Shown here piece by piece: positions 6,001 to 9,000 of a stretch of 64,000 nucleotides of DNA. The stretch lies in NCBI RefSeq assembly GCF_057098645.1, contig NZ_CM169472.1; one strand, 5' to 3'. Positions within the stretch are counted from its first letter, which is position 1. Each line of letters begins with the position of its first letter. Position numbers: made by a program.

Positions 6001-9000
6001 TTTGATAACCGGCATCACCAGAGTACGCGCAGCGTTGTTTTTCGCCTGTCAAGAGGCGACGACAATCTTATAGTGATGATTGATTAGCGCATTGATTGTC
6101 CACTTACATTTTTCCAGCCCTACCGCAGCTTCGGGGGTGTCCTTGATGACACAATCCGGGTGTTCATTGGTGGCGTCAGCCTTCAGCCACAACGTAACGT
6201 CGAGAGGATCTTTTTCTTTATATTCCAGAACAATAAAATTATTGCGCTCAACAAAGTCATGGCGGCTGCCCATCAGCGAGTGAGCTGCTTTGACGTTATC
6301 GCTATTCAGTTGATCTTTTAGCGGAACACCGAACTGATAGTTAATCGTGGCGTTAACGCTAAGATCACTGTTATCTCCGGTACCTGCTTTATAATCCGTC
6401 CCGACCGTCAGTAACGGAACGGGTTGATAGTTCACGCCAAGCGTCACTGCATAGGGATCTTTTTCTAAATTATCGGTGCCGATGAGCGCCACTTCGTCAC
6501 CATAATATTGCTCGAAAACAATTTTGCTCCCCAGCTGAGGATAAGAAGGTAGCCAGGCTTCCGCCCGGACATCCCAGCCACGTGCGGGTCGTTCTAAATA
6601 GAAATCAAAATCTTTTGAATCTTTCCACTCTGAAAGCGGATGATAATAGTTACCAGAAAATTTTAAATAATCCGTCCAGGCTTCTGTTCCTAAGGAAGGT
6701 GCGAACAAGTTCCTGATATGAGATCATCATATTCATCCGGAGCGCATCCCAGAGGGACATCATGAGCCATCAACTCACCTTCGCCGATAGTGAATTCAGC
6801 ACTAAGCGCCGTCAGACCCGAAAAGAGATTTTCCTCTCCCGCATGGAGCAGATTCTGCCATGGCAGAATATGACCGCTGTCATCGAGCCGTTTTATCCCA
6901 AGGCGGGCAATGGCCGACGGCCCTATCCGCTGGAGACCATGCTGCGTATTCACTGCATGCAGCATTGGTACAACCTGAGCGACGGTGCCATGGAAGATGC
7001 CCTGTACGAAATCGCCTCCATGCGCCTGTTTGCCCGATTATCTCTGGATAGCGCCCTGCCGGATCGCACCACCATCATGAATTTCCGCCACCTGCTCGAG
7101 CAGCATCAACTGGCCCGTCAATTGTTCAAGACCATCAATCGCTGGCTGGCCGAAGCAGGCGTCATGATGACCCAAGGCACTTTGGTGGATGCCACCATCA
7201 TTGAGGCACCCAGCTCTACCAAGAACAAAGAGCAGCAACGCGATCCGGAGATGCATCAGACCAAGAAAGGCAATCAGTGGCACTTTGGCATGAAGGCCCA
7301 CATTGGTGTCGATGCCAAGAGTGGCCTGACCCACAGCCTAGTCACCACCGCGGCCAACGAGCATGACCTCAATCAGCTGGGTAATCTGCTTCATGGAGAG
7401 GAGCAATTTGTCTCAGCCGATGCCGGCTACCAAGGAGCGCCACAGCGCGAGGAGCTGGCCGAGGTGGATGTGGACTGGCTGATCGCCGAGCGTCCCGGCA
7501 AGGTAAAAACCTTGAAGCAGCATCCGCGCAAGAACAAAACGGCCATCAACATCGAATACATGAAAGCCAGCATCCGTGCCAGGGTGGAGCACCCGTTTCG
7601 CATCATCAAGCGGCAGTTCGGCTTCGTGAAAGCCAGATACAAGGGGCTGCTGAAAAACGATAACCAACTGGCGATGTTATTCACCCTGGCCAACCTGTTT
7701 CGGGTGGACCAAATGATACGTCAGTGGGAGAGATCTCAGTAAAAACCGGAAATAACGCCAGAAATGGTGGAAAAAATAGCCTAAATAGGCTGATTCGATG
7801 TGTTTGCGGGAAAAAAATCGGCCCAGATCCGCGAAATTTTAATCAACGAGTCAGCTTGGGAAGAAATGACCTGCTTATTCGCACCTTCCCTAAGCCTAAA
7901 CGGCGATGTCCGCGGGTGAAATCATAATCATAAAATATATTCCCCCCCAGAAGCCATTTATCAAAATTATGTCTTACACCTAAACCTATATTACCTATCG
8001 TGCGTTCTTCTTTTCGTTGCGCAGAAAACTGACTGAAATAGACTGTGCTCTGATTGTCATACCAGGGAACAAAATAGTCGATCGAACTGCCGTCCAGATC
8101 GCCACCCTGACCGATGGAAAGGTTAGAGCGAACTTTACCATAAGGAGAAAGCGCACCTTCAATATAAGACTGTGCAGATGATGTGATTTGCCCTTGCAGA
8201 TAGCTTCTCGCCTGGGATTCAAGAGCTTCTGGAGTCAGGTTCTCAAAGCCCTGCTGGGCGGACTCGGTAACGTAATTGGCACCACGTTCCTTGAAAGATT
8301 TGCCTTTGTTACTTTGTTCCTCTTGTTGAGCCGTTTCGCTTGCCAGATCAGGTAATGAAGATTCGCTTTGCTGGTGATGCTGCCAACTTACTGATTTAGT
8401 GTATGATGGTGTTTTTGAGGTGCTCCAGTGGCTTCTGTTTCTATCAGCTGTCCCTCCTGTTCAGCTACTGACGGGGTGGTGCGTAACGGCAAAAGCACTG
8501 CCGGACATCAGCGCTATCTCTGCTCTCACTGCCGTAAAACATGGCAACTGCAGTTCACTTACACCGCTTCTCAACCCGGTACGCACCAGAAAATCATTGA
8601 TATGGCCATGAATGGCGTTGGATGCCGGGCAACCGCCCGCATTATGGGCGTTGGCCTCAACACGATTTTCCGCCATTTAAAAAACTCAGGCCGCAGTCGG
8701 TAACCTCGCGCATACAGCCGGGCAGTGACGTCATCGTCTGCGCGGAAATGGACGAACAGTGGGGATACGTCGGGGCTAAATCGCGCCAGCGCTGGCTGTT
8801 TTACGCGTATGACAGGCTCCGGAAGACGGTTGTTGCGCACGTATTCGGTGAACGCACTATGGCGACGCTGGGGCGTCTTATGAGCCTGCTGTCACCCTTT
8901 GACGTGGTGATATGGATGACGGATGGCTGGCCGCTGTATGAATCCCGCCTGAAGGGAAAGCTGCACGTAATCAGCAAGCGATATACGCAGCGAATTGAGC

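Follow-up and report, generated by a model that had tools for sequence, protein, structure and literature searches.

A stretch of 64,000 nucleotides from NCBI RefSeq assembly GCF_057098645.1, contig NZ_CM169472.1 (the window, meaning this stretch at its full length), carries an insertion sequence (IS) of the IS5 family within sinH, the gene for an intimin-like inverse autotransporter. A single copy of an ISKpn26/IS5Y-type element has almost certainly transposed into a CTAA site, which fits the YTAR motif, in the barrel-coding part of the chromosomal sinH gene, adding the latest and probably neutral lesion to a decaying pseudogene that also carries an IS1 and a nonsense codon. Element, target behaviour and outcome are already known and ordinary: a known element behaving in its known manner in a gene that was already dead.

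The element and its flanks were delimited by a reading of positions 6400-8200. CTAA was found directly on both sides of an element of 1196 bp (Table 1), preceded by TTC on the left and followed by GCC on the right, at the two places where the initial annotation had described the direct repeat. The termini are GGAAGGTGCGAACAAG and, reverse-complemented, GGAAGGTGCGAATAAG, which match at 15 of 16 positions and correspond to IS5-type terminal inverted repeats of about 16 bp (GGAAGGTGCGAA...). K-12 IS5A has exactly these 16-nt termini at its two ends, and the ends of the window element are intact as had been stated. The literal direct repeat is 6 bp long (CCTAAG, at 6689-6694 and 7889-7894), since the IS begins with G and ends with C and both by chance equal the bases beside the target; the duplication was set at 4 bp by taking the canonical IS5 termini. 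IS5 target duplications obey 5'-YTAR-3' (PMC5009759), and CTAA agrees with this preference, as annotated. The chance probability of a 4-bp flank match alone is 1/256, and the comparison with an empty site is the decisive test. The element holds a single long open reading frame (ORF) for 326 amino acids, which matched Pfam DDE_Tnp_1 (1.6e-35) and DUF772 (3.3e-21) and aligned with all 285 positions of the NCBIfam profile NF033581 "IS5 family transposase" at 367 bits, above its cut-off of 140.

When both IS elements were taken out, each with one copy of its duplication, a reading frame of 2181 nt with one internal TGA, at codon 400, was left. From end to end and without a gap, this rebuilt gene aligned as one piece with sinH ("intimin-like inverse autotransporter SinH") of Escherichia coli O145 strains, and its sole difference from sinH of O145 RM9873 was at nt 1200, where TGG is changed to TGA. 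The RM9873 allele thus provides the empty-site comparison that the initial annotation had named as a check: deleting 6694-7893 leaves a single CTAA at the site, exactly as in RM9873. The alignment pieces obtained by BLAST overlapped by 6 bp because the literal repeat has that length. The existence of the empty site points to simple transposition, and over about 45 kb the sequence around it keeps the order of the RM9873 chromosome, with 99.94-100% identity, which shows that the insertion took place without rearrangement, as had been proposed.

The identity of the interrupted gene was assessed with the intact O145 allele, one nucleotide from the rebuilt gene, which passed the cut-off of 999 bits for the SinH equivalog NF033423 with a score of 1486. 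The start codon of sinH is an ATG at 9225 on the minus strand, antiparallel to the transposase, and the orientation given in the initial annotation holds. The ISKpn26-type insertion follows codon 186. As the IAT_beta domain (Pfam PF11924) spans amino acids 64-337 of SinH, the insertion lies mid-barrel, and its earlier placement in a beta-barrel coding region is confirmed. The IS1 lies 480 bp from the ISKpn26-type element within sinH, is bounded by a perfect duplication and interrupts the gene after about codon 28, just beyond the signal peptide. A junction ORF of 219 amino acids begins inside the ISKpn26-type element; a look-up with its sequence returned nothing. The sinH adhesin has been studied in extraintestinal pathogenic E. 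coli and as a vaccine antigen (PMC9937491).

The insertion was then placed among its relatives. The element was found in sinH at this site in no complete RefSeq E. coli genome when positions 5900-8700 were used as query; this search was swamped by IS matches, and the empty allele was found with the rebuilt gene as query. An exact search for the 37-nt left junction in genome contigs holding one genome per species, with this species represented by another genome, gave no match. Relatives were retrieved by exact match to the 315-aa fragment downstream of W400*, which gave 24 contigs, and ten distinct places were read. Eight of the ten, all independent assemblies, carried both the W400* allele and the IS1 break, seven of them running 54-769 nt into IS1 at the window junction 8372/8373 and one ending exactly there. 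One of the eight is a metagenome scaffold from ENA, and seven are draft genomes from NCBI (GCA_015676305.1, GCA_032490215.1, GCA_015676215.1, GCA_032490195.1, GCA_029361185.1, GCA_029357705.1 and GCA_015673775.1). All eight crossed the CTAA site without the IS5-type element. They agreed without mismatch with the window over the covered part of its left flank, at most 6694 nt and in two of them 4627 nt, and over the 484-nt sinH segment between the two IS elements. On parsimony, W400* and IS1 would have come first and the ISKpn26-type insertion last, and the lack of any substitution between the flanks of the window and those of its relatives indicates that the insertion is very recent. The initial annotation had presented the insertion as the disruption of the gene; it does interrupt sinH, but the IS1 at about codon 28 and W400* predate it in the close relatives.

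The remaining two places (Logan assemblies ERR499300 and SRR12615774) carried neither IS nor W400*. They had a frameshift with G8 instead of G7 and extra lesions that differed between them, which indicates independent decay of one sinH allele across several lineages. The run is C7 at window positions 7942-7948, or G7 in the sense of the gene (sinH nt 501-507), and the G8 lies at about 2268-2275 and about 2267-2274 of the stretches retrieved from the two assemblies, respectively; this run could be prone to slippage. A separate observation concerns one relative, GCA_015676305.1 (contig JADAIL010000067.1, 4040-4100 of the retrieved stretch), where the IS1 of sinH abuts wcaM of the colanic-acid cluster at its outer end, in place of the 5' end of sinH. 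This join suggests either a large inversion by recombination between IS1 copies or a join made in assembly.

By established IS5-family biology, the DDE transposase would bind the 16-bp terminal inverted repeats and would cut the target with a 4-bp stagger at YTAR, and repair of the gaps would copy CTAA to both sides. The donor was probably a plasmid or another chromosomal copy, the element being promiscuous and plasmid-borne in Enterobacteriaceae. The insertion alone would abolish SinH by splitting its membrane barrel midway, past residue 186. Since sinH had already been cut after about codon 28 by IS1 and at codon 400 by the nonsense mutation, the insertion was probably neutral, and it most likely has no phenotypic effect.

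Nucleotide comparison identifies the element as an IS5-family, IS5-group IS of the ISKpn26/IS5Y type, both by its length of 1196 bp and by its near-identity to elements so named. The literature describes ISKpn26 as an IS5-family element of 1,196 bp that generates a direct repeat of 4 bp, which is CTAG in acrR (PMC8023600), and the assignment is based on this description and on labels of the NCBI annotation pipeline (PGAP). From the MG1655 copy called "IS5Y" (1196 bp, in lomR of prophage Rac) it differed by 4 nt and one amino acid (99.7% identity), 325 of 326 transposase residues being the same. The lomR copy itself is flanked on both sides by CTTG, outside the YTAR motif (1491-1500 and 2697-2706 of the retrieved K-12 stretch). 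Taking the best match per E. coli record, 1758 records fell at 99% identity or above, 1010 at 95-99% and 1066 at 90-95%. Among the matches listed, nearly all of those at 96.5-100% were labelled "IS5-like element ISKpn26 family" by PGAP, with one plain "IS5 family transposase", and those at about 91% were labelled "IS5-like element IS5 family". Copies with 100% identity occurred in the E. coli BL12 chromosome and in plasmids CP082484.1 and CP058064.1, labelled "IS5-like element ISKpn26 family transposase"; the two plasmids, one from Salmonella and one from E. coli, both came from pigs, and these identical plasmid copies argue for recent mobility. Copies with 99% identity or above are present in at least 3683 plasmid records, from Klebsiella, Escherichia, Enterobacter, Citrobacter, Salmonella and others.

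The initial annotation had called the element IS5 and named alignment to an IS5 reference as a check. The family was right, but the type sequence was not. A strict reading, in which the element would equal the IS5 type sequence, K-12 IS5A, is very improbable even though the two share their terminal 16 nt, the length and YTAR motif of the target duplication, and a single DDE transposase of 326 amino acids, of which 320 residues are the same as in InsH1 and 6 differ (98.2% identity). Against MG1655 IS5A (1195 bp), 103 differences were counted over 1198 alignment columns, which amounts to 91.4% nucleotide identity or 8.6% divergence, and the window element is one base longer. These differences cluster in the non-coding ends and at third codon or synonymous positions. 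The strict reading is thus refuted at the nucleotide level, where the far closer matches to MG1655 IS5Y and to copies labelled ISKpn26 family, and the division of E. coli records into identity groups with separate labels, also stand against it; otherwise it is a question of ISfinder naming. Under the ISfinder isoform convention, the element could still count as an isoform of IS5. The name "IS5" is acceptable in a loose sense and wrong for the type sequence.

Two further explanations concern the event itself. In K-12, IS5 upstream of bgl, flhDC or glpFK serves as a model for activation by insertion, and the insertion in sinH might likewise be functional, relieving silencing or supplying transcription and so re-expressing sinI and the 2139-aa adhesin gene, both of which had lost the sinH promoter through the polar IS1 and the nonsense codon. 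In favour of such a role, which we consider unlikely in the extreme, sinI is intact here and frameshifted in O145 RM9873, the large adhesin ORF continues downstream and the sinH region is AT-rich. A promoter and terminator consensus scan, however, gave counts at shuffle expectation, with four promoter-like sites in all, below the shuffle mean of 4.8, and no promoter-like site reading outward from the left IS end. The closest start downstream belongs to sinI and lies about 1.7 kb away from the IS end, and the insertion did not recur, being present only in this genome among the complete RefSeq E. coli genomes and the relatives read. It is equally hard to credit that the element owes its retention to renewed expression of the still-intact sinI and of the giant RatA/RatB-like adhesin, as activation by insertion within a dead gene. 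The junctions could also reflect an assembly artefact or recombination between two IS copies and not a primary insertion. Misassembly at IS copies is a classic problem, and the wcaM join in GCA_015676305.1 indicates that IS-mediated rearrangement does occur in this lineage. Recombination between two copies, however, yields unlike flanks, whereas here CTAA stands on both sides, the flanks together rebuild the gene exactly and they are collinear with the reference chromosome over 45 kb; this explanation has next to no probability.

Simple transposition of an ISKpn26-type element into an already inactive gene is therefore preferred, and several points count against it. The transposition chemistry and the present activity of the window copy are what we infer for this element. 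Neutrality is deduced from the two other lesions, and the insertion could in principle influence the expression of sinI, which is intact, and of the large adhesin gene. The order of events rests on parsimony, and precise excision in the relatives is formally possible but rare. An assembly error is formally possible too, although the exact junctions and the perfect target duplication speak to the contrary.

The inserted element shares the length, the 4-bp direct repeat and nearly all of the transposase with ISKpn26 and K-12 IS5Y copies, from which only the insertion site sets it apart, the sinH site being empty in complete RefSeq E. coli genomes. Insertions of ISKpn26 also inactivate mgrB in Klebsiella pneumoniae. 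In that species the chromosomal gene acrR has likewise been inactivated by a simple insertion of ISKpn26, flanked by a repeat of 4 bp (CTAG there; PMC8023600). The insertions in K. pneumoniae are recurrent and selected, for drug efflux or colistin resistance, whereas in the window the target was already dead and the event was seen once. The finding adds one insertion site of a very common enterobacterial IS and in this respect matters little. It provides a small and clean case of stepwise pseudogene decay, in which a nonsense mutation and IS1 were followed by an ISKpn26-type IS5 element, and the junctions offer a strain-specific marker for this sublineage of O145:H28-like E. coli. In annotation, sinH should be given as a pseudogene with three lesions and the element as ISKpn26/IS5Y rather than IS5A.

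Table 1. Coordinates of the ISKpn26-type insertion, the interrupted sinH gene and the adjacent sinI gene in the window.
Feature	Position	Strand	Evidence
Left target-site duplication, CTAA	6690..6693	.	Sequence; one CTAA here in the empty-site allele
IS5-family insertion sequence, ISKpn26/IS5Y type, 1196 bp	6694..7889	+	Nucleotide comparisons with K-12 and labelled copies
Left terminal inverted repeat GGAAGGTGCGAACAAG	6694..6709	+	Same as K-12 IS5A terminus
Transposase gene, intact, 326 aa, InsH-like DDE	6762..7742	+	Pfam, NCBIfam, protein comparison
Right terminal inverted repeat CTTATTCGCACCTTCC	7874..7889	-	K-12 IS5A comparison
Right target-site duplication, CTAA	7890..7893	.	Sequence
sinH pseudogene, intimin-like inverse autotransporter, broken by ISKpn26-type element, IS1 and nonsense codon	5068..9225	-	Rebuilt gene
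W400* nonsense mutation (TGG to TGA) in sinH	6049..6051	-	Only difference from O145 sinH across 2181 nt
IS1, 768 bp, in sinH; 9-bp duplication CGCTTTGCT at 8364-8372 and 9141-9149	8373..9140	.	Sequence, rebuilt-gene alignment
sinI, SinI family autotransporter-associated protein, intact, 321 aa, downstream of sinH	4047..5012	-	NCBIfam NF040711, 420 bits, cut-off 165

By sequence comparison, the window is chromosomal E. coli DNA from a strain closely related to the O145:H28 lineage. Genes are ordered from the xseA side through the large adhesin, sinI, sinH, yfgJ, der and bamB to hca, which equals the order in O145 RM9873. Shigella was considered as the source given the two IS elements; it was ruled out by the 99.94-100% identity to O145 RM9873 over about 45 kb and by the presence of one copy of each IS in the window. 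Downstream of sinH, the alignment with RM9873 gives the window one extra base in sinI, the gene being annotated as frameshifted in that strain, and the ORF of the large adhesin (2139 aa, RatA/RatB-like) continues downstream of sinI. At 45143-50352, between the hcaB 3' end and the side of yphE, about 5.2 kb of the window with several ORFs of 290-400 amino acids have no counterpart in O145 RM9873. As hcaB is annotated as truncated in RM9873, this difference represents a deletion in that strain and not an insertion in the window.
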